58,566 nucleotides of DNA, taken from NCBI GenBank assembly GCA_964492425.1, contig CAZBKB010000004.1, positions 24,260 through 82,825 of the forward strand, read 5' to 3'. Made by a program: the position numbers and the translations under genes. Below are positions 13,284-24,292 of the stretch, piece by piece. Numbering within the stretch: the stretch's first letter is position 1; every line of letters begins with the position of its first letter. This stretch comes from an uncultured Gammaproteobacteria bacterium. Lineage in GTDB: Bacteria > Patescibacteriota > Microgenomatia > Curtissbacterales > GWA2-41-24. The notes below the pieces were generated by a model. The model had not been told where the DNA came from and searched no databases. It saw nothing but the letters and a program-made list of their open reading frames with translations.

Positions 13284-13794
13284 AGTCTTCCCTTACCTTA
13301 TTCCAGTTAAGCTCATTATCATGATTTACTCGGCCTTCATCGTGTGGGTTGTAAAGCTTTGTTGGAAAATTCGCAAGCATCGCGGGTGTTTTTGAAATTA
13401 CCACAAAGCCATGATATGTCTCTTCGGGAATAATAACCATGTACATTTCGTCTTCATTTTCCGGACCCATTGTGAACAAATTTAATTTGCTTTTAGTAAC
13501 AGAGCCTTCTCGAGGGTCAAAAACAGCAGTTACAATTCTGCCAGACACACAGATAAATCTGTCTTTTTGATACCTGTGCACATGCCACTTGTTTTCATCT
13601 CGTGCTACAGATGGAGGTGTTTGCGAAATATATTGCATCTTGAAGGGCATTTCGGAAGTTAAAACGTCTTTCCAATCTTCTCGCAAGGTTTCAACCAATG
13701 TGCCTGTCGGATCTTTATGAAGAGTAAGTTTTCTTAAAATGACACCTTCTATTAACTGTTCAGTGCTTTTTAGATTAAAATAGCTGTAATTCAT
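13273..13794 (-). CDS. rmlC: dTDP-4-dehydrorhamnose 3,5-epimerase-like cupin
   Basis: 173 aa cupin with HVHRYQKDRFICVSGRIVTAVFDPREGS...IIPEETYHGF, located between rmlB and rmlD. Confidence 0.65.
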   Translation of the reverse strand: MNYSYFNLKSTEQLIEGVILRKLTLHKDPTGTLVETLREDWKDVLTSEMPFKMQYISQTPPSVARDENKWHVHRYQKDRFICVSGRIVTAVFDPREGSVTKSKLNLFTMGPENEDEMYMVIIPEETYHGFVVISKTPAMLANFPTKLYNPHDEGRVNHDNELNWNKVREDFGN

Positions 13795-14804
13795 TATTTT
13801 CTTATATATTGTTTGTCGTAATAATCATTAAAGGCTTTGTTTTTAAGTTCTTTCCACCAAGATTTATTATTCTGATACCAGCTGATTGTTAATTTAAGAG
13901 CCTCGTCAAAGGAAAAGTTTGATTCCCAATTTAACTCTTTCTTAATTTTAGCAGCATTTATTGCATATCTCCTATCGTGGCCTGGCCTGTCGCGTACGTA
14001 TTCAATCTTTGTTTCGGGCAGTTTCATAATTTTCAAAATTCTTTTAATAACGCTAATATTGGGAATATCATTATTTACTCCCACACAATAAGTTTCACCG
14101 ACCTTGCCTTTTTGGATTATTGCATCAATTGAGGATGCGTGATCCTCGACATACAACCAGTCGCGTACATAAAGACCATCTCCGTAAACTGGAACATTTT
14201 TGCCTTCAATCAAGTTCGTAATGGTAAGGGAGATTAATTTTTCCGGATACTGATATGGGCCAAAGTTGTTAGAACAATTGCTTATGGTGATCGGCAGTCC
14301 ATATGTTTCAAAATAAGCTCTGACTAAATGATCTGATGCAGCTTTTGTTGCAGAATAAGGGCTATTTGGCTGGTATTTTGTTGTTTCGTCGAATTTTTCC
14401 TTTGAAGTGAGCGCTAATGCACCGAATACTTCGTCTGTAGAGACATGGTGAAACCTTCTTATTTTCTCTTTACGCGCCGCATCTAGAAGAATTTGTGTTC
14501 CCAAAACGTTGGTTAATACAAATGGTGCCGGATCTAGAATCGACCGATCAACATGCGATTCTGCGGCAAAATTTACAAGAACATCAACACCACGAATCAC
14601 CTCACTTACGTCATGTATATTGGCAATATCCCCTTCTTTAAATTTGTAACCGGGTAAATTTTCTACATCTTTTAAACTATCGAGATTGCCAGCATAAGTT
14701 AATTTATCAAAATTGATAATTTCATCACTGGGGTATTTTTTTAACCAGTAGCGAATAAAATTGGAGCCAATAAAACCTGCTCCTCCAGTTATTAGTAGTT
14801 TCAT
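13794..14804 (-). CDS. rmlB: dTDP-glucose 4,6-dehydratase
   Basis: MKLLITGGAGFIGSNF..., STDEVFG, YSATKAASDH. I start it at ATG 14802-14804, which forms a TAATG overlap with the rmlA stop; the 17-codon upstream extension in the track is unlikely. Confidence 0.9.
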   Translation of the reverse strand: MKLLITGGAGFIGSNFIRYWLKKYPSDEIINFDKLTYAGNLDSLKDVENLPGYKFKEGDIANIHDVSEVIRGVDVLVNFAAESHVDRSILDPAPFVLTNVLGTQILLDAARKEKIRRFHHVSTDEVFGALALTSKEKFDETTKYQPNSPYSATKAASDHLVRAYFETYGLPITISNCSNNFGPYQYPEKLISLTITNLIEGKNVPVYGDGLYVRDWLYVEDHASSIDAIIQKGKVGETYCVGVNNDIPNISVIKRILKIMKLPETKIEYVRDRPGHDRRYAINAAKIKKELNWESNFSFDEALKLTISWYQNNKSWWKELKNKAFNDYYDKQYIRK

Positions 14805-15556
14805 TAAAATGTAGTGAGTTCTTTTTCTCTGTCCCCCAAAAGTTTGCGAGCCCAAAACACATTTGAACGGTATAGGCTTTCGAAAGTTCCCGCATCAGAC
14901 CAGAACCCTGAAAGGTTTGCCCATCTTAGTTTACCTTCATTTATGTATAGATTATTGACATCGGTTATCTCTAGTTGTCCTCTGGTTGAAGGTTCAATTT
15001 TTGAACAATAAGAAAATACTTTATTGTCATAAATATATACACCGGTTACTGCTAAATTACTTTTAGGCTTACTCGGTTTTTCTTCAATACCCACAACTTT
15101 TGTATTATCTACATGATCAAGTTCGGCAATCCCAAACCTTTGAGGATCATCTACCTCTTTCAAAAAAATTACCGCTCCGTCTTTGAAATTTTTCACTTCT
15201 TGAGATATATCGGTATCAGTACAATTATCCCCCAATATGACAGTTATGGGTTTTTCGTCTGCAAAGCTTTTGGCAAGTTTCAGCGCATCTGCAATTCCCC
15301 CATCACCTAAGTTTTGGTAAGCATACTCAATGTGTTTTATACCAAAGTCTGTACCATTTTGAAGAACTCTTATAAAGTCGCCAGCGTGTGGACCTCCGAC
15401 TACTATTAAGATTTCGTAAATCCCAGCCTTCGTCAAGGTTTGGATTGGGTAATATATCATTGGTTTGTCATATACGGGCAGGAGATGTTTGTTTGTTGCG
15501 TAGGTTAAGGGGTAAAGGCGGGTACCTAAACCGCCTGCTAGAATTACGCCTTTCAT
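14804..15556 (-). CDS. rmlA: glucose-1-phosphate thymidylyltransferase (short form)
   Basis: MKGVILAGGLGTRLYPLTYATNKHLLPVYDKPMIYYPI..., 250 aa. Confidence 0.85.
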   Translation of the reverse strand: MKGVILAGGLGTRLYPLTYATNKHLLPVYDKPMIYYPIQTLTKAGIYEILIVVGGPHAGDFIRVLQNGTDFGIKHIEYAYQNLGDGGIADALKLAKSFADEKPITVILGDNCTDTDISQEVKNFKDGAVIFLKEVDDPQRFGIAELDHVDNTKVVGIEEKPSKPKSNLAVTGVYIYDNKVFSYCSKIEPSTRGQLEITDVNNLYINEGKLRWANLSGFWSDAGTFESLYRSNVFWARKLLGDREKELTTF

Positions 15557-15600: not shown

Positions 15601-16650
15601 TTAAGGGTCAAGCTCACAATTGTTTTCGGATTCTGCCTCGCATTGATCAGTTCCACCATCACCATTGGCTGAATCCCCAAAACCTGTTCCACCAATCAAA
15701 ATATCGTTTTGTCCCCCACCCTTAAGACTATCGTTACCGTCGTCTCCAAAAATTTCGTCTTCTCCTCCATCACCTTTTAGAAAATCATGACTTTCATTTC
15801 CGTGGATTTTGTCATTGTGACCGCCACCCTCAATGTGATCACCGCCGGCTCCGCCAAAGATAGTGTCTTGACCACTGTCGCCTCTGATATTATCCCCACT
15901 CTCTTGTCCTAGGATTACGTCGCTGCCTTCCCCGCCTTTTATAGAATCGCCTCCGGGGCCACCCAGGATACAGTCGTCCCCACCTTTACCGTCAATCGAA
16001 TCACCACCCTCAAAACCCAGAATTAGATCATTGCCAGATGTTCCTTTTAACCGGTCTCCTATTGAGGTTCCAAAAATTGGGCTATTTGAGAACCCGATTT
16101 GTTCACATTCGTCTGGAAGGTCGATAGAGATTCCGATAATGATATCAAAAATCACCTGGGTATTTTGAAAATCATTTCCTGCTTCTTCTTTAAAAATTGC
16201 TTTAAATGTGTAAGTTATAGAAGTCGCCGGGTTAATGTCTGAGAGAAAAATCCCGTTTATCGGATTACCTTCCGTAAAGAAATCCGCAAGAGTTTTAGGA
16301 CCTGACGAACTTGTGCCACCATAAATATCAGTTCCACTTTCGGTGATTACAAAATCAAACGCTTGCGACAAATTAGCACTGTCATTAACTGACGATGACC
16401 TAACACCAACCGGACGGATTCCTGAACCGTTGTTTGTAACGTTAACATCGTGGCTTACCGATTGCCCAGGTACCATACCGGTAACGGTAAAAATCGGGTT
16501 GCCTTCCGGTACACCCCAATCTACTGATAAATCACCAACTGCGTATACTGTAGAGCTGTCAAGTAATTGAGACGTGAATAAATTGACCGCAAACACGATT
16601 GCCAAAACTGAAATTGCTATTTTTATTAATCTTGATTTAAGTTTTTTCAT
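15601..16650 (-). CDS. secreted protein: TasA/camelysin-like N-terminal domain fused to RTX-type Ca-binding repeats
   Basis: Signal peptide MKKLKSRLIKIAISVLAIVFAVNLF. The N-terminal domain (...MVPGQSVSHDVNVTNNGS...TYTFKAIFKEEAGNDFQNTQVIFD) resembles TasA-family beta-sandwich proteins. The C-terminal part carries GGxGxDxxx nonapeptides. Start ATG 16648-16650 lies just after the sipW-like stop. Confidence 0.7.
   Translation of the reverse strand: MKKLKSRLIKIAISVLAIVFAVNLFTSQLLDSSTVYAVGDLSVDWGVPEGNPIFTVTGMVPGQSVSHDVNVTNNGSGIRPVGVRSSSVNDSANLSQAFDFVITESGTDIYGGTSSSGPKTLADFFTEGNPINGIFLSDINPATSITYTFKAIFKEEAGNDFQNTQVIFDIIIGISIDLPDECEQIGFSNSPIFGTSIGDRLKGTSGNDLILGFEGGDSIDGKGGDDCILGGPGGDSIKGGEGSDVILGQESGDNIRGDSGQDTIFGGAGGDHIEGGGHNDKIHGNESHDFLKGDGGEDEIFGDDGNDSLKGGGQNDILIGGTGFGDSANGDGGTDQCEAESENNCELDP
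15649..16044 (-). repeat. about 13 tandem RTX/hemolysin-type nonapeptide repeats (27-nt period) inside the CDS
   Basis: GTSGNDLIL GFEGGDSID GKGGDDCIL GGPGGDSIK GGEGSDVIL GQESGDNIR GDSGQDTIF GGAGGDHIE GGGHNDKIH GNESHDFLK GDGGEDEIF GDDGNDSLK GGGQNDILI. Confidence 0.75.
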
Positions 16651-16651
16651 G

Positions 16652-17953
16652 TTATGGTGCACTGTTTACCGCCTTCGGGGTCGCTGATTCTCCAGCGCCT
16701 ACATCAATATTCGTTTGCGTGGTAGCTGTGTGCCAATTTGTTGAAACTGTACCGTCACCCGGAACAGAATTTCTCTCCATAGATTTTTTGGGTGTCTGGC
16801 CAGGGGGATCGTCACCAAAAAACCAAGCACCGTTGATATTTGCAATATCAATTGTATTTCCTAAATTATTCTTTAGGGTTAATTGCTCTCCATTATTTTG
16901 GAGGCTAACACCGCTTGTTTGAAAGTCTGGTGTTACGCTTATAATAGATGTGGATTCAATATCATTACTAATCAGAAATAAACCATTTGCAGAAATAATA
17001 TGACCTAAAGGGATAGTTATAATCCTTGCCGGTCCACTGCCTTCACCTAGGTTTTCTACAACCCAACTCGAAAGATCGATTGCATTGCCAGTCATATTTC
17101 TTAATTCAATCCACTCGTCTGCACTGTTTCCTTGAGAGCCGGCCCACATAATTTCATTTATGACAACAGACCTTACCTGGACAACCGGTGAGGGGCTTGG
17201 AGAAGGGCTTGGGGTAGGCGTTGGTGTTGGGGAAGAGAAAATTTGTGCCGTTATAAAAGTGTTAGTGAGAGAAGATGCAGAGTCCGAAAAAAATGCGTAG
17301 GAATTATGGAAAAACATTATTCCTAAAACAAATGGGAACAGGACTCGAAGGCTAATGGGGCCTAGCAAAGCTCCTTTTTCTACTTCGAATTGGGGATCTT
17401 CCAAAAGCATTCTTCTGGCCCTCATAATTTTAATTATTTCTTTAACGAGGTTGATAGATTCTATGCCAATTACTAAAAGTGCCGGGATTAAAACCAAAAG
17501 TGCAAAACCTTGTTTGGTTTTTGCAAACGCAAAAAGTTCGCCAGCTTTGGGTATCGTTAATACGGATTTTCCAATGATTAAATCTTCACTAACAAGTTGA
17601 GTATCTGGTGAATTATTAGCGTCTCCTTGGGTTTGATATAAGATTTTGCTATTTGTGACTCGCTTTGAAACAACCCTGTGGGTTGTAACAACATTTGCAT
17701 TTTTGTCACCTTTAAACGCAATTATATCCCCTTCCTTATATTTGCCAATATCTTTTGGGAGGGGGCTATTTATCCCTTTTGCAAGATTGACAACGATTAA
17801 GTCTCCAGCTTTAACTGTTGGTTCCATAGAACCTGAGCGAACAATTAGTGCTTTGTTGCCAAAAATAGGTATGGCGACGTAAGTTAATATTGCCGCGATG
17901 ATAACTAATAAAGTAACCAGCGTATAATTTACAAACTTAAAAAAAGTTTTCAT
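16652..17953 (-). CDS. SipW-like (archaeal/ER-type) signal peptidase I fused to an internal SipW-class signal peptide, PT/SP linker and lamin-tail domain (LTD)
   Basis: N-TM, SGSMEPTVKAGDLIVV (Ser box), TTHRVV, QGDANNSPD, then a C-TM. This is followed by ...LRVLFPFVLGIMFFHNSYAFFSDSASSLTNTFITAQ, then SSPTPTPTPSPSPSPSP, then VVINEIMWAGSQGNSADEWIELRNMTGNAIDLSSWVV (LTD). Start ATG 17951-17953 (MKTFFKF); the 27-codon track extension crosses a hairpin. Confidence 0.8.
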   Translation of the reverse strand: MKTFFKFVNYTLVTLLVIIAAILTYVAIPIFGNKALIVRSGSMEPTVKAGDLIVVNLAKGINSPLPKDIGKYKEGDIIAFKGDKNANVVTTHRVVSKRVTNSKILYQTQGDANNSPDTQLVSEDLIIGKSVLTIPKAGELFAFAKTKQGFALLVLIPALLVIGIESINLVKEIIKIMRARRMLLEDPQFEVEKGALLGPISLRVLFPFVLGIMFFHNSYAFFSDSASSLTNTFITAQIFSSPTPTPTPSPSPSPSPVVQVRSVVINEIMWAGSQGNSADEWIELRNMTGNAIDLSSWVVENLGEGSGPARIITIPLGHIISANGLFLISNDIESTSIISVTPDFQTSGVSLQNNGEQLTLKNNLGNTIDIANINGAWFFGDDPPGQTPKKSMERNSVPGDGTVSTNWHTATTQTNIDVGAGESATPKAVNSAP

Positions 17954-17988
17954 TTTCACAAATATCTGATATAAATCTTGATTGCAGT

Positions 17989-18026
17989 TGGGCGGGAAGC
18001 GAATTAGGACAGGAGCAACCCGCCCA
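17989..18026 (-). promoter_or_regulatory. GC-rich stem-loop between the TasA-like gene and the sipW-like gene (attenuator or RNA-stability hairpin candidate)
   Basis: Perfect 8-bp arms TGGGCGGG (17989-17996) and CCCGCCCA (18019-18026) with a 22-nt loop that contains the AATTAGGACA motif. No U-tract follows on the minus-strand transcript. Confidence 0.4.
18000..18011. repeat. copy 1 of the CGAATTAGGACA motif
   Basis: aagcGAATTAGGACAgg, read on the plus strand. Confidence 0.6.
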
Positions 18027-18079
18027 GTCTGCATCTATTTACGATTTAAAGAGCCTGTCCTTCTCTATGATCACCCCTC

Positions 18080-18703
18080 TTATGGGGTTTGCGTGCCAGT
18101 GAATACGCCGTCAAACTTGACGCTTGAGTTTGCGTACGTATTATCCAAAGAACTCGGTAACGCAACATGCGCGGTGCATTCTGCTTCGTCAGGACCCGAA
18201 CCATCTTCATCACCATCATCTGGCGCTAATGAGCCAAGAACACCTGATCCGGCATCCCAAGCATTTATAGAAGATGGACCACTTGTTGGAAAGGTCGTAT
18301 CTAAAGTACCGTCATCATCAGAGTCGGTTCTGCATGTAAAAGCTACCGTCATTTGATTAGCTATGTCCGCATTTTCAATTGTCACAACATTATCAAATTC
18401 CGCAGTAAGATCTAAACCGATTAATGCTGAGCTGTTGTTTTTCAGCCAGAAAACATAATCTTTTTCAAATCCTGGGAATAAACCTGTTTCGTTTATTGCT
18501 GGTGCTGAAATATCATTTGCATAAGTCCCTGGAGATTCTTCATCAGGTGCTATTTGCAGATCAGCGCTTCCAGTCGAGAAAGTATTTTCTTCACTTGTTG
18601 ACGTATCGCTGAAAAAAGCAAAAGTTGCACCAACTATCAGAGCGGCTGCCGCAGCAATTGACGCAATTGAAAGTGCGATGCGAGAATTTAATGGAAAACC
18701 CAT
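18080..18703 (-). CDS. TasA/camelysin-like secreted protein with a SipW-class signal peptide
   Basis: N-terminus ...IASIAAAAALIVGATFAFFSDTSTSEENTFSTGSADLQI matches the signal peptide plus FxD...NTFxxG signature of SipW-dependent proteins. Strong SD AAGGAGG sits 7 nt upstream of the ATG (plus-strand cctcctt at 18711-18717). Confidence 0.75.
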   Translation of the reverse strand: MGFPLNSRIALSIASIAAAAALIVGATFAFFSDTSTSEENTFSTGSADLQIAPDEESPGTYANDISAPAINETGLFPGFEKDYVFWLKNNSSALIGLDLTAEFDNVVTIENADIANQMTVAFTCRTDSDDDGTLDTTFPTSGPSSINAWDAGSGVLGSLAPDDGDEDGSGPDEAECTAHVALPSSLDNTYANSSVKFDGVFTGTQTP

Positions 18704-18778
18704 ATAACTGCCTCCTTTCTATATAAATTTTGCGCACTGTCAGATTTCTTTGGGAAAAGATGTAGACAAGATTGTATT

Positions 18779-18790
18779 TGTCCTAATTCG
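18779..18790. repeat. copy 2 of the CGAATTAGGACA motif (inverted orientation)
   Basis: Plus strand tgtcctaattcg is the reverse complement of cgaattaggaca. Located in the 271-bp region upstream of the TasA-like gene. Confidence 0.6.
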
Positions 18791-18921
18791 TTTAAGGTCT
18801 CCTTCGCAAAAGCTTCGGACGACCAGGCAGTTTTTTTCGGCATTGATTATCTGGCGAAGTGTTTTTTAAGCAGGCCAAAAATCTATGCAAGCTTATTAAA
18901 AATATTTATGAACATTAAGTC

Positions 18922-19505: not shown

Positions 19506-20420
19506 TCAATTATGGGACTTGTAGTAATCTATAGTTTTTTTGAGGCCTTCAGTTAGATTTACCTTTGCGTTCCAACCAACTATTCTATGTAACTTCTGGC
19601 TAGATGCGCAGTTTGCTTTTACGTCCCCTTGTCTTTTGCCAAGATCGTTTATAGGTACCTTATAACCGACAATTTTGAATATTTCATCTATCAAATCTTT
19701 TACCTTAATACCTTTTTCTGTACCGATATTAAAAATTTGATATCCTGTGAGGTTTAACACATCTATATGTGCCTGAACAAGGTCGTCTATGTAAATAAAA
19801 TCGCGGATTTGCTCACCTTTCCAATAAAGCGGGAGAGCAGTCTTTTTAAGTGTCGATTTTATAAAGTTTGGGATCGCATGTGTTTCCGGATCATGCTGCT
19901 CCCCTGGGCCATAAGGGTTAAAATAGCGAAGAATTATTGAATCAAAACCGTAAACCGCGTTATAAGTTTGCATATAAGATTCTATGGCGGCTTTGGATGC
20001 ACCATAAGGGTTGTCCGGATGAACAGGCGCATCTTCTTTTATTGGCAAATTTTTTGGTGTGCCGTAAACAGTAGCGGACGATGAGAAAATCATTTTTTTT
20101 ACGCCAACTTTTCTCATTGACTCCATGAATTTTATTGTTCCCAGGAAATTATTTCTACTATATAGGATAGGATCTTTTACAGAATCGGGCACAACTATGA
20201 GGCCTGCCATATGAATTACCGCATCTACATCTCTTAGCGCTTCCTCTGCTTTCTCACTGTTTGCAATATCACCAACTATTAATTTGGCTCTTGGGTCAAC
20301 TGATTCTTTGTGGCCTTTGACTAAATTATCAAGGACTACCACTCTGTGGTTCAATTTAAGAAGCAGCTGAACAACGTGCGAACCAATAAAGCCGGCTCCA
20401 CCTGTTACAAGTACCTTCAT
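19506..20420 (-). CDS. NAD-dependent epimerase (UDP-glucose 4-epimerase-like)
   Basis: MKVLVTGGAGFIGSHVV, SSSATVYG, YGASKAA, RYFNPYGPGE; 304 aa. Confidence 0.75.
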   Translation of the reverse strand: MKVLVTGGAGFIGSHVVQLLLKLNHRVVVLDNLVKGHKESVDPRAKLIVGDIANSEKAEEALRDVDAVIHMAGLIVVPDSVKDPILYSRNNFLGTIKFMESMRKVGVKKMIFSSSATVYGTPKNLPIKEDAPVHPDNPYGASKAAIESYMQTYNAVYGFDSIILRYFNPYGPGEQHDPETHAIPNFIKSTLKKTALPLYWKGEQIRDFIYIDDLVQAHIDVLNLTGYQIFNIGTEKGIKVKDLIDEIFKIVGYKVPINDLGKRQGDVKANCASSQKLHRIVGWNAKVNLTEGLKKTIDYYKSHN

Positions 20421-20501
20421 AGATTTTGCATGTAATATGATTTAAAAACCATCCTCTGGTCACTCTGTTTTGCGTTTATTTCGCTCTTGTAGGCATTTTA
20501 C

Positions 20502-20519
20502 AAAAAACCCATAAGGGCT
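20502..20519 (-). terminator. weak intrinsic terminator candidate after the tsa operon
   Basis: Minus strand AGCCC-UUAU-GGGUU followed by UUUU. The stem is short. Confidence 0.25.
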
Positions 20520-20527
20520 GCAAAAGA

Positions 20528-20563
20528 CTAGAAACCGACGCCGCCAGTTACAAGTATTTTCAT
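20528..20563 (-). pseudogene. 11-codon relic of an SDR epimerase gene start (MKILVTGGVGF-stop)
   Basis: ATGAAAATACTTGTAACTGGCGGCGTCGGTTTCTAG. Its ATG forms an ATGA overlap with the tsaB-like stop. It mirrors the start of the intact epimerase 140 bp downstream (MKVLVTGGAGFIGS) but differs at many third-codon positions. Confidence 0.3.
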
Positions 20564-20895
20564 CAGTAATCAAACTTACTTTTATCGTAAACTGGTAAGA
20601 CTATTTTACCTTTTTTACCGTTGACTGGAATGTTTAGGGCAAAACATAATGCGTTTGCAACAGTTACCCCAACACGTGTGCCTGTAAATGACCCTGGACC
20701 GGGATTAACATCGATCGATTTTATGTCGGTAATTTCAAGTTTATTTTTTTTAAGAATTTTATCTATCATTGGCAGTAGGACCTGTGATCCAACTTTTTGG
20801 GTTTCCACAAGAGTGGAAATTAAATTTTTATCAGCAACCAGTTCAACTTTTACGTTCTTTGTATCAGTGGTGTCAATTTTAAGAGTGACTTTCAT
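20563..20895 (-). CDS. tsaB: TsaB-like protein, half-length (N-terminal subdomain only)
   Basis: 110 aa with ...INPGPGSFTGTRVGVTVANALCFALNIP. Canonical TsaB is roughly twice this size. Confidence 0.65.
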   Translation of the reverse strand: MKVTLKIDTTDTKNVKVELVADKNLISTLVETQKVGSQVLLPMIDKILKKNKLEITDIKSIDVNPGPGSFTGTRVGVTVANALCFALNIPVNGKKGKIVLPVYDKSKFDY

Positions 20896-21452
20896 TTAAC
20901 GTTTAGGGCACCATATCTTACTATTTTGAATGGGATTGTTGTAGCATCGATAACCGTAGACTCTTCTTTAAGTTCGCAATCTCCTTTGACGGTAAAATCT
21001 GCTAACCTTTTAAAGTTTTCATCTAGATCTTCATAGGTTCTTGGGGCTTCTTTCGTGTGAAAGTTTGCAGATGTTCCGATTAAGGGGGCACCTGCACCTA
21101 CAATTAGAGCTTTTGCAATAGCAGATTTCGGCATTCGAATTCCTATTTTTTTCAGGTCATGTTTGCTTTTAAGCAATACTGTTAGTGCACCTGGCCAGTG
21201 TTTATTTATCAGCTGCTGTGCCGGGCCTGTAACTTTTGCGATTTGATGAAGTGGGCTTAGGTCACTGATTAGAATCGGAAAATTTTGACGACTAGCTTTT
21301 ATTTTTTTTATTCTCGTTTTTGCCAACAAATTGTTCCAAATACAACCTATCCCATAAACAGTATCTGTCGGGAATATTACAACCCCACCTCTTTTTAGGA
21401 TAGTTATAGCTTTATCTATGTCTTTCGATTTTGATCCTTCTTTTTTTCTCAT
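20892..21452 (-). CDS. tsaC: L-threonylcarbamoyladenylate synthase (YrdC/Sua5 family)
   Basis: GGVVIFPTDTVYGIGC, ...GTSANFH..., 186 aa. Confidence 0.85.
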   Translation of the reverse strand: MRKKEGSKSKDIDKAITILKRGGVVIFPTDTVYGIGCIWNNLLAKTRIKKIKASRQNFPILISDLSPLHQIAKVTGPAQQLINKHWPGALTVLLKSKHDLKKIGIRMPKSAIAKALIVGAGAPLIGTSANFHTKEAPRTYEDLDENFKRLADFTVKGDCELKEESTVIDATTIPFKIVRYGALNVK

Positions 21453-23107: not shown

Positions 23108-24292
23108 CTAGTTAGGAATCATGTGAAGGTAGAGGGTGTCCAAACCGTCGTTATGTTTAATTCTTGCGTATATGAGCGGTCCATAGCTGCATCCCCCATA
23201 TGAACCACCGTAGAGCTTTCCGTCTTTTACCGCTGTAACGGTGGCAGCTGTGGAAGGTCCTTTAGACATGTCTATCCCATAATGAGGTTTGCCACTATAT
23301 GCTCCTGAATTCGCATATGACGTATAACCAAACCCCTGGTTGATTTGGACCGGTGCACTAAGTGGCCATGGTAAATCACCATGTGGATTAATCGACCCCA
23401 CTGCCGTCTCGTCGTTATTCCAATAAGTAAAACTGGTAGAGGAATTTAAGTAGTTATTTGGGTCCTCAATTGAACCATTTTTATGAGTTTCAAAATGTAG
23501 ATGTGTACCAGTAGAGCAACCTGATTGACCCATGATTATTGACCCGATTGTATCCCCCTGCTTAACATCTCGCATAAAGGTTTCTTTTCCCCCGCCAAAG
23601 GCGATCGCTATTTCAGCTTGGGCTTGCGCGAGTAGTCTCTGATATCTTGCTTCGTCATTTTTAGTAATTAGCAGAAATGATTGTTTGTCTACCTTTTGCC
23701 TGTCCAAATCTACTTTTAGTGCTTCAAGTTTGGTTTTTTGCTCTTCAATCGCGGCCTGTTTTAACTCTCTTTCATCCTTTTGGTTTGCATAGTTGGAGCG
23801 TGTTTGCTGAAGGCTTGCCAGAATTTTCTTATCATTTTCCTGAACTTGTCTGAGATACTGAAGCTTTAGGAGGATATCTGAAAAACCGTTTGAGGATATT
23901 ACAAGTTCTAGATCTGATACAAAACTTTGCTGATAAGTTGCTACAACTCTCTTTTTTACTAATTCTTCAAGCTTATCAATAGACTCTGTTACATATCCTA
24001 TTCTGAATCCCAAGATTCCGATTTCTTTCTCAAGTTGCTGGATTGTACTTTCTGCATCGTTTATTTTTAGTTGGGTTACTTTTATTTGTGTATCAAACTG
24101 GGCAATTTGCGAAGAGAGTGTTTTTTTTTGGTTGCTCAGATCTGAAATTTTACCTGAGAAGATGTTTATACAGTCACTGACATTACTTGAAGGGTTTTTC
24201 TCACAATCCTCAAGTGTGACAGCAAGTGAAGATCTTAATCCAAAGAGGAGGGTGAGTGAGATGAAGAGCAAAAAAACGATTGTTTTTTTCAT
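23108..24292 (-). CDS. coiled-coil M23/LytM peptidoglycan endopeptidase (EnvC/PcsB-like partner of FtsEX) with an atypical motif order
   Basis: Signal peptide, a long coiled coil (residues ~45-230), then GDTIGSIIMGQSGCSTGTHLHFE, followed further downstream by GKPHYGIDM...DTLYLHM at the very C-terminus. ATGA overlap with ftsX. Confidence 0.85.
   Translation of the reverse strand: MKKTIVFLLFISLTLLFGLRSSLAVTLEDCEKNPSSNVSDCINIFSGKISDLSNQKKTLSSQIAQFDTQIKVTQLKINDAESTIQQLEKEIGILGFRIGYVTESIDKLEELVKKRVVATYQQSFVSDLELVISSNGFSDILLKLQYLRQVQENDKKILASLQQTRSNYANQKDERELKQAAIEEQKTKLEALKVDLDRQKVDKQSFLLITKNDEARYQRLLAQAQAEIAIAFGGGKETFMRDVKQGDTIGSIIMGQSGCSTGTHLHFETHKNGSIEDPNNYLNSSTSFTYWNNDETAVGSINPHGDLPWPLSAPVQINQGFGYTSYANSGAYSGKPHYGIDMSKGPSTAATVTAVKDGKLYGGSYGGCSYGPLIYARIKHNDGLDTLYLHMIPN

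Follow-up and report, generated by a model that had tools for sequence, protein, structure and literature searches.

A SipW-like signal peptidase of Patescibacteria fused in one frame to a putative SipW-type substrate with a lamin-tail domain

Can a signal peptidase carry its own substrate in the same polypeptide chain? The question is raised by an open reading frame (ORF) at 16652-17953, on the minus strand, of a 58,566-nucleotide stretch of DNA (the window; positions 24,260 to 82,825 of contig CAZBKB010000004.1, GenBank assembly GCA_964492425.1), which is deposited under the name of an uncultured Gammaproteobacteria bacterium and placed by GTDB in the Patescibacteriota. The ORF is uninterrupted, encodes 433 amino acids, and holds all the parts that the original prediction, made from the sequence alone, had listed: a peptidase core, its C-terminal transmembrane helix (TM), an internal signal peptide, a PT/SP linker, and a lamin-tail domain (LTD). 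We found that this architecture is a large conserved family and not a one-off. Our preferred reading, towards which we lean, is that the peptidase cuts its own chain between A220 and F221, in cis or in trans, and so releases a protein consisting of a TapA-like strand and an immunoglobulin (Ig)-type domain that primes or caps TasA-like fibres.

Peptidase and lamin-tail domain in one reading frame

Amino acids are numbered from the start codon at 17953, because the homologues begin at an MK..K..N consensus that matches this position. A start at ATG 18034, giving an ORF of 460 amino acids, was rejected on the same ground; this in-frame ATG lies 81 nt upstream of the accepted start and would add 27 residues (MQTGRVAPVLIRFPPNCNQDLYQIFVK). 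The in-frame methionines that had been pointed out as M204 and M209 do exist, but those numbers were counted from ATG 18034, and in the 433-residue protein they are M177 and M182. The segment around the internal signal peptide had been placed at 17243-17368; its lower limit stands, whereas the upper limit was approximately 57 nt too low, as the stretch MRARRM...FITAQ (residues 177-237) occupies 17425-17243.

The N-terminal half is an intact signal peptidase of the endoplasmic reticulum (ER)/archaeal type (S26B). NCBIfam model TIGR02228 (archaeal-type signal peptidase I) matched residues 11-165 with 93.8 bits (cutoff 51.85), and Pfam Peptidase_S26 matched residues 15-95 with 34.9 bits (cutoff 22.9). 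The closest named relative is the Bacillus SipW equivalog NF046067, whose 103 bits are under the 190-bit equivalog cutoff; the half is SipW-like, not an equivalog of Bacillus SipW. Its boxes (SGSMxP, HR, and GD..D) are of the Ser-His(-Asp) type and not of the LepB type with a Ser-Lys dyad. When aligned with human SEC11A and SEC11C, the SGSMEP, HRV, and GD..D boxes put S42, H92, and D117, as the catalytic residues, opposite S56, H96, and D122 of SEC11A. Among 66 full-length homologues, M43, P45, H92, and D117 were invariant and S42 was conserved in at least 90%.

The folds of the peptidase and of the LTD were assigned from profile matches and from the secondary structure of an AlphaFold2 (AF2) model of the 433-residue monomer, which had a mean predicted local distance difference test score (pLDDT) of 80. 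Together with hydropathy, the model gave the order TM1, a well-folded catalytic domain, TM2 within a longer helix, and a basic loop; towards the C terminus, it showed a short helix (residues 200-217), disorder (residues 218-258), and a confident all-beta LTD. Pfam PF00932 matched residues 261-370 with 42.7 bits (cutoff 34.3), and the AF2 beta-strands at 263-409 mostly had pLDDT above 85.

To see how widely the fusion occurs, we used a word-indexed search of 5.8 billion proteins. It returned dozens of full-length relatives with 31-63% identity; the named ones belong to Patescibacteria and are labelled solely 'signal peptidase I'. The top 120 relatives were classified: 84 have the peptidase, the internal motif, and the LTD in one protein, 17 have the peptidase and the motif with another or merely short passenger, and in 12, which are LTD proteins standing alone, the motif is part of an N-terminal signal peptide. 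When 1.84 billion representatives at 50% identity were searched exhaustively with phmmer, 276 matches had E <= 1e-30. The best 150 of these comprised 66 proteins with peptidase, motif, and LTD, 9 more with peptidase, LTD, and a variant motif, and 53 LTD-only proteins. Counted as protein clusters at 50% identity, the fusion occurs at least 75 times, apparently in Patescibacteria alone, and species-representative genomes with the fused form include Levybacteria, a complete Woesebacteria genome (CP011214), Gottesmanbacteria, and other Patescibacteria.

These results also bear on the possibility that an assembly or sequencing artefact, such as a lost stop codon or a frameshift, joined two genes. 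Such an event could be imagined at this locus, since the split relatives described below have a 4-nt ATGA overlap, where a single indel could fuse the frames, and the depth of the source run at the locus is low (~7x). A Logan contig, which was assembled independently from the source groundwater run, agrees with the window over 16797-18800 without a single difference, gap, or indel. The same fused frame recurs in the at least 75 clusters, from many samples and sources, and the loop and the motif are conserved as protein. No stop codon or frameshift of the kind suspected earlier was found, and we regard an artefact as extremely improbable.

Several relatives carry the peptidase-TM-cleavage-site module with other passengers. 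A Gottesmanbacterium protein of ~1022 amino acids (L044 2090-5158) has several extra domains between the module and the LTD, and four proteins of 340-680 amino acids (P0088, P0079, P0101, and P0104) have the module and no LTD. Perhaps the architecture serves more generally as a device for pairing a peptidase with a passenger. Loci of the Patescibacteria type were also seen in several species-representative metagenome-assembled genomes titled 'uncultured Gammaproteobacteria' or 'Pseudomonadales' (L005, L007, L009, L012, L014, L017, L025, L031, L038, and L056); because of their gene content, these labels look like placeholders or mis-assignments.

The comparison of fused and split loci was informative as to the origin of the two halves. 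Six-frame ORFs of 70 related loci were searched with local profiles, and a peptidase was found in 38 loci, the window included. In 9 of the 38 the peptidase is fused to an LTD, in 1 it carries the motif and a PT tail alone, and in 28 the genes are split; the LTD-protein gene lies directly downstream in 26 of the 28 split loci, although these co-occurrence counts are biased towards LTD neighbours because the search that collected the loci started from the fused protein. In L003, L007, and L008 (a Levybacterium), a separate SipW-like peptidase of 178-192 amino acids ends shortly past TM2, and its stop codon overlaps (ATGA) the start of an LTD preprotein of 226-292 amino acids. The preprotein has an ordinary N-terminal signal, e.g. 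MKKFFILTILFLFAVGLISYRVTMA/YFSDTAQSTNNVF... (here and below a slash marks the predicted cut), with a site of the form A/[FY]FSD...N.F, behind which come a PT linker and the LTD. Between the C-terminal half of the fused protein and LTD proteins that stand alone, identity reaches 59%.

Thus, the earlier claim of a gene fusion between enzyme and substrate is borne out by the split pairs. The C-terminal half is the counterpart of the separately encoded SipW-type preproteins, and the basic loop corresponds to the C-terminal tail of the peptidase together with the former n-region of the signal peptide of the substrate. A one-base change in the ATGA overlap would yield the TM2-loop-TM3 arrangement. 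In many lineages, a full TasA-like core is still present in the downstream LTD protein, where it separates the strand from the LTD, so that the fused protein resembles a minor subunit of the TasA family from which the core has been lost. In a rough neighbour-joining tree, the window fell into a clade of fused forms and other fused forms lay elsewhere, suggesting more than one fusion event (at least two).

As an alternative to a functional fusion, the original prediction had considered that internal initiation, at M177 or M182, makes a separate LTD preprotein, in which case the fusion would be merely apparent at the protein level. There are indeed two in-frame ATG codons in the loop, a weak GAGG is located ~9 nt upstream of the M182 codon, and 'RARRM' is conserved in the closest homologues. 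A methionine is, however, present in the loop of just 18 of the 66 fused homologues, which makes internal initiation unlikely as a general mechanism. There is no Shine-Dalgarno sequence before M177, the M182 product would have an acidic n-region (MLLEDPQFEVEK) and hence a poor export signal, and the full-length frame is conserved down to 31% identity. The weak GAGG leaves a chance for this particular gene, but on the whole we consider internal initiation very improbable.

The internal signal peptide and its predicted cleavage site

The basic loop (KEIIKIMRARRM...) is followed by a 12-residue hydrophobic run, VLFPFVLGIMFF, a polar c-region, HNSYA, and then FFSDSASSLTNTF. The cut is predicted between A220 and F221, that is, between the codons at 17296-17294 and 17293-17291. 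The features of a signal peptide are thus found in the middle of the chain: a basic n-region, a 12-residue h-region, a polar c-region, and small residues at -1 (Ala or Ser in 99%) and -3.

It had been noticed earlier that the fused ORF and a neighbouring TasA-like protein have in common the signature AFFSD(S/T)..S..NTF. When the pattern [AS][FYL][FY][ST]D-x6/7-N-x-[FL] was run on the six-frame translation of the 58.6-kb window, it matched exactly twice, in these two proteins, compared with a mean of 0.03 in shuffled sequence. The observation is therefore confirmed, and its coordinates alone have to be corrected: in the TasA-like protein, whose N terminus reads ...GATFA followed by FFSDTSTSEENTF, the motif lies at 18619-18578, and its gene, which had been described as lying 400 bp upstream, ends 126 nt upstream of the start of the fused ORF.

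We then compared the internal sites with true N-terminal signals. One column profile was made from 108 internal sites and 56 N-terminal signals of neighbouring TasA-like and LTD proteins, and the column composition of the two sets was nearly the same. Position -1 was Ala in 85% and Ser in 14% of both sets, and position -3 was Thr, Ser, or Ala in 93% of the internal sites vs 98% of the N-terminal signals. The corresponding values were 62% vs 80% for Phe at +2, 95% vs 91% for Asp at +4, 89% vs 76% for the conserved Ser, and 98% in both sets for the conserved Asn. The register of the site matches that of Bacillus subtilis TasA (..TWA/AF..). TasA has an aromatic residue at P2 and Phe at P2'; because of this Phe, the site is poorly suited to LepB-type enzymes and requires the ER-type SipW (PMC10269814). 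The model of SipW-dependent signal peptides, TIGR04088, matched 18 of 40 homologous internal segments (best E = 1e-8).

Whether the site could be reached by the catalytic domain depends on the topology. The loop between TM2 and the hydrophobic run (TM3) had on average 7.4 Lys and Arg vs 3.0 Asp and Glu and was net positive in 65 of 66 homologues, whereas the segment past TM3 was net negative. By the positive-inside rule, the cleavage site would therefore be on the outer face, beside the catalytic domain; a cytoplasmic location of the site, which would have spoken against the original prediction, is not what this rule predicts.

Variant internal sites without the Asp and the Asn occur in fused proteins of L009 and L014 (e.g. 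..VTYA/SFTSGQAAVTGVTL and ..PVHA/YFSAQARLTNITL), and in L010 the TasA-like and the fused protein share an unusual variant of the site (YFSDVAVIGGSTFS vs YFSDTASILGTTFS).

The donor strand, the lamin-tail domain, and the likeness to TapA

In TasA fibres, the first 11 residues of the mature protein (28-38) form a donor strand that completes the next subunit (PMC9674648). Judged by its position, the motif that follows the predicted cut, in which the original prediction had seen an FxD...NxF block, corresponds to this donor strand. D224, S228, and N231 were conserved in at least 90% of the 66 homologues, and the conservation of the motif reaches position +19. The motif and the linker are disordered in the AF2 monomer. 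When the strands of LTD-type proteins were compared with those of TasA-like proteins, identity was 0.547 within a locus vs 0.427 across loci (permutation p ~2e-4, n = 15 loci), a likeness that would fit recognition by a common partner.

The strand is followed by the flexible linker and by the LTD. Short matches to the linker DNA (17197-17230) occur in unrelated contigs of higher depth (19-27x) in three of the four runs examined (~7x in the fourth). DNA coding for PT linkers is of low complexity and is shared between contigs, which could give rise to mis-joins in assemblies; none was seen at the fused locus.

A functional parallel is TapA of B. subtilis. TapA is processed by SipW and has a TasA-like N-terminal strand, of which residues 44-57 alone are enough for biofilm formation; its complete Ig fold is unable to enter the filament, the protein is about as abundant (scarce) as SipW, and the tapA stop codon overlaps the start of sipW (PMC10151520). 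It has also been proposed that TapA anchors the fibres (PMC9674648). The C-terminal half of the fused protein has the same functional logic: a predicted site for the SipW-like peptidase, a strand like the donor strand of the major subunit, and then a complete Ig-type domain. By this analogy, the most fitting role for the LTD protein, if released, is that of a fibre initiator or cap like TapA.

A short form of the peptidase was seen in L002 (4001-6072). In this protein of 251 amino acids, TM3 and the motif for cleavage and donor strand are retained, and a PT tail of ~30 residues (~45 residues past the site) ends the chain. It lacks the LTD, which is encoded instead by the next gene, where it follows a TasA-like core that has no strand. 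The database contains at least 8 short forms of a similar kind (P0094, P0095, P0100, P0102, P0107, P0108, P0113, and P0116). The L002 form recalls, as an analogy, the sufficiency of the TapA 44-57 peptide.

On these grounds we propose the following mechanism. The N terminus would be inside, TM1 would cross to the outside, where the catalytic domain would lie, and TM2 would return the chain to the basic loop inside. The short h-region would then cross outwards again and place ...HNSYA/FFSD... on the outer face beside the active site, where the peptidase would cut the Ala220-Phe221 bond in its own chain (cis) or in that of a neighbouring copy (trans). A three-helix enzyme would remain in the membrane, and a protein of ~213 amino acids would be freed, with FFSDSASSLTNTF as its N-terminal strand, the PT/SP linker, and the LTD. 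By analogy with B. subtilis TapA, the freed strand would insert into the first TasA-like subunit and so prime or cap a fibre built by donor-strand exchange, with the LTD at one end. The fusion would give one initiator per peptidase molecule, at the place where the subunits are processed. The cleavage itself, its course in cis or in trans, and the role in fibre priming are what we infer.

Several points weigh against this proposal, in addition to the bias in the co-occurrence counts. Read support at the locus was checked on assembled contigs and not on raw reads. TIGR04088 gave no match, even at E <= 10, to the internal segment of the fused ORF itself or to its C-terminal 257 amino acids; this segment is a more diverged copy than the segments of the homologues that the model matches. 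If the cut takes place in cis, the signal peptide stays tethered to the enzyme and might compete with TasA-like substrates. The covariation of the strands could stem from a shared peptidase specificity and not from a shared acceptor groove. No TapA-type family was found for the whole protein or the C-terminal 257 amino acids in NCBIfam or Pfam, where the TapA model of the library was not separately confirmed, and the LTD product would be an analogue of TapA rather than a member of its family. Finally, the internal h-regions differ from free signal peptides, in that a proline is found in mid-helix in 73% and Lys or Arg at the start in 65%; these features, which have no parallel in free signal peptides, could mean a permanent membrane hairpin.

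The last point leads to an account in which the chain is not cleaved at all: TM3 would be a permanent third helix, and the motif, linker, and LTD would stay attached as a tethered adhesin or as a donor strand that anchors the fibre. The haloarchaeal SipW-like TafD, which has four TMs and a second extracellular domain and for which no processing is described (PMC11821415), and the proposed anchoring function of TapA (PMC9674648) are in line with such an arrangement. On the other hand, the residues at -1 and -3 are as small as in true cleavable signals, for which an anchor has no need. The h-region is just 12 residues long and the strand begins 5 residues on, so that the strand would sit against the membrane, and the orthologous split genes encode ordinary cleavable preproteins. 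We therefore think a permanently uncleaved chain unlikely.

It is also conceivable that the chain is cleaved as proposed but that the LTD protein is secreted or adhesive without any role in fibres, FFSD...N.F being an element for recognition by the peptidase alone. LTDs are found in many unrelated large extracellular proteins, the best 150 representatives include the 53 LTD-only proteins, and peptidases of this family have other passengers (P0088, 680 amino acids without an LTD, and L044, 1022 amino acids with added domains). Nevertheless, the conservation to +19 extends past what a signal peptidase usually reads, and the strand co-varies with the TasA-like strand of the same genome. The LTD protein holds a full TasA-like core in many relatives, and the L002-type peptidases keep the strand with a PT tail of ~30 residues, in parallel to the sufficiency of TapA 44-57. 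A released LTD protein without a fibre role thus seems quite unlikely, and self-processing that yields a fibre initiator or cap is the reading that we retain.

Table 1. Features of the fused ORF and of the adjoining genes (aa, amino acids; positions are those of the window).
Feature	Position	Strand	Basis
Whole fused ORF: SipW-like signal peptidase, internal signal peptide, donor-strand motif, PT/SP linker, LTD	16652..17953	-	Domain profiles; hydropathy; identical gene call P0001
TM1, predicted N-terminal membrane anchor, N terminus inside (aa 9-32)	17858..17929	-	Hydropathy; AF2 helix 2-27; tail net positive in 56 of 66 homologues
Predicted extracytoplasmic catalytic domain (aa 33-146)	17516..17857	-	TIGR02228 above cutoff; SEC11A/C alignment; pLDDT above 90
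Putative catalytic residues Ser42, His92, Asp117	17828-17830, 17678-17680, 17603-17605	-	SEC11A/C alignment
TM2, usual C-terminal anchor of SipW-type peptidases (aa 148-170)	17444..17512	-	Hydropathy; AF2 helix 147-184; split peptidases end shortly after TM2
Predicted basic cytoplasmic loop with M177 and M182 (aa 171-203)	17345..17443	-	Charge counts; alignment with split gene pairs
Internal signal peptide: h-region VLFPFVLGIMFF (aa 204-215) and c-region HNSYA (aa 216-220)	17294..17344	-	Column profile
Donor-strand-like motif FFSDSASSLTNTFITAQ, predicted new N terminus after cleavage (aa 221-237)	17243..17293	-	Conservation; TasA donor-strand position
PT/SP-rich flexible linker SSPTPTPTPSPSPSPSP (aa 240-256)	17186..17236	-	Read from sequence; pLDDT below 50; homologue lengths vary
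LTD, Ig-like beta-sandwich (aa 261-410)	16724..17173	-	Pfam PF00932; AF2
TasA/camelysin-like major subunit, 207 aa, SipW-type signal peptide and AFFSDTSTSEENTF	18080..18703	-	PF12389, 35.1 bits vs 22.5; TIGR04088, 33.6 bits vs 19
Intergenic GC-rich hairpins, possible attenuator	17954..18079	-	Minimum free energy -42.9 kcal/mol, z = -2.8
G3: signal peptide ..STVYA/VGDL, TasA-like core from after the donor-strand position, RTX repeats	15601..16650	-	hhalign; hidden Markov model; HemolysinCabind

Neighbouring genes and relation to known systems

The fused gene is flanked by two genes that matter for the proposal: the gene for the TasA/camelysin-like major subunit and, on the other side, a gene that we call G3. 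A gene of the TasA/camelysin family adjoins the peptidase gene in 26 of the 38 peptidase loci. The existence of TasA homologues in Patescibacteria has been noted without more (PMC9245690). G3 has an ordinary signal peptide, whose site ..STAYA/xGDL.. is conserved, and HemolysinCabind (RTX calcium-binding) repeats follow downstream. When two disjoint alignments were compared with hhalign, the family of the G3 N-domain was related to the TasA-like family with a probability of 99% (E = 9e-18), and a hidden Markov model of the TasA-like family matched G3 at 1.4e-9. With Pfam PF12389, there was a sub-threshold match alone, for the N-domain of the L002 orthologue (E = 0.11). G3 thus appears to be a TasA-like core, not a canonical TasA/camelysin subunit. 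Since its mature N terminus begins at the GDL strand, which follows the donor strand in TasA-like proteins, it would be an acceptor core without a donor strand, and it may be an acceptor-only cap or anchor of the fibre. In L002, L005, L007, and L008, the G3 core is fused to an LTD instead of RTX repeats.

The gene order TasA-like, peptidase(-LTD), and G3 is conserved in L001, a 722-kb groundwater contig, and in other loci; L001 has, as in the window, a TasA-like protein, a fused peptidase-LTD, and an RTX-repeat protein. The same synteny on this contig, whose fused protein has 54% identity, marks the locus as a stable part of the chromosome rather than an island. Its neighbours are dTDP-sugar (rfb-type) genes on one side and, on the other, a sugar-epimerase gene with Sua5/TsaB-type genes behind it (13794-15556 and 19506-21452).

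Of the two genes, only the TasA-like one is preceded by a ribosome-binding site, a strong AGGAGG. The 126-nt spacer that separates it from the fused gene contains two hairpins, one of which, CCCCAUAAGAGGGG, lies at the stop codon, while the other has a GGGCGGG/CCCGCCC stem. The difference in ribosome-binding sites and the hairpins, which could be an attenuator, would be compatible with much subunit and little peptidase-initiator. Promoter and terminator sites predicted around the locus were no more numerous than in shuffled controls, and Rfam, tRNA, and tandem-repeat scans of the window gave nothing relevant to the locus.

In the proposed mechanism, G3, having a TasA-like core without a donor strand and RTX repeats, would accept the last free strand at the end of the fibre opposite to the LTD. 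Going by the list of parts, the three genes would code for a normal subunit, a donor-only piece, and an acceptor-only piece, as a polar, two-ended donor-strand fibre needs. A further and more speculative extension, which we put forward only tentatively, is a polar fibre with dedicated end pieces that is built on the peptidase: a single cis cut per enzyme would make the peptidase a platform that fixes one initiator per enzyme, in the manner of an usher or a pilus sortase, G3 would terminate or anchor the other end, and the fibre with its LTD tip could serve episymbiotic Patescibacteria as an attachment organelle.

The locus resembles tapA-sipW-tasA of B. subtilis in that a minor protein, composed of a TasA-like strand and a complete, non-polymerising Ig-type domain, would be processed by the same peptidase as the major subunit, and in that the accessory and peptidase genes are translationally overlapped, here in the split Patescibacteria loci (PMC9674648, PMC10151520). 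Unlike in B. subtilis, the accessory protein is on the C terminus of the peptidase and its signal peptide is internal, the gene order is tasA-like, sipW::accessory, and acceptor-only gene, and the Ig-type domain is an LTD that has no sequence similarity to TapA. In addition, the third component, a donor-strand-less TasA-like core with RTX repeats, has no described counterpart there, and the host is an uncultured Patescibacterium. In Bacillus cereus, the cluster around the SipW gene includes two or more paralogues of TasA/camelysin (sipW-calY1-bc1280-calY2), one of which has been proposed in the role of TapA (PMC10151520); that locus differs from the present one in having no peptidase fusion, no LTD, and other accessory factors. 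TafD of haloarchaeal Tat-fimbriae is a SipW-type peptidase dedicated to a donor-strand fibre, with extra TMs and a second extracytoplasmic domain (PMC11821415). It is set apart from the fused protein, by its description, through its four TMs, a second domain that is not an LTD, and the absence of a described internal site or self-processing.

Cleavage at internal sites and self-cleavage are both familiar from related enzymes. SEC11 (S26B, Ser-His-Asp) cuts viral and eukaryotic polyproteins after an internal hydrophobic segment behind earlier TMs and frees a lumenal or extracellular domain; there, enzyme and substrate are separate proteins, whereas here the site is in the chain of the enzyme itself. 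In clan SF, LexA/UmuD (S24) cleave themselves, and Bacillus type I signal peptidases are reported to do so, the scissile bond being in their own chain and the cut occurring in cis or in trans. The LexA-type cleavage differs in being cytoplasmic, in using a Ser-Lys dyad, and in serving the control of a repressor instead of a signal-peptide-type release of a secreted domain. A full-text literature search found no description of a fusion between SipW or a signal peptidase and a lamin-tail domain.

If the proposal is true, the fused protein would be a self-processing membrane protease of the SEC11/SipW class and a simple natural model for the ER-type reading of internal signals. At least 75 clusters that are labelled merely 'signal peptidase I', where they are named at all, would be open to more precise annotation. 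The donor-strand fibre system of TasA and TapA would be extended to the Patescibacteria, which are ultra-small, mostly uncultured, and often episymbiotic, and it would come with testable parts: a major subunit, a donor-only initiator fused to the peptidase, and an acceptor-only cap. The fusion suggests a possible way in which the initiator could be kept scarce and co-located with the processing of the subunits.

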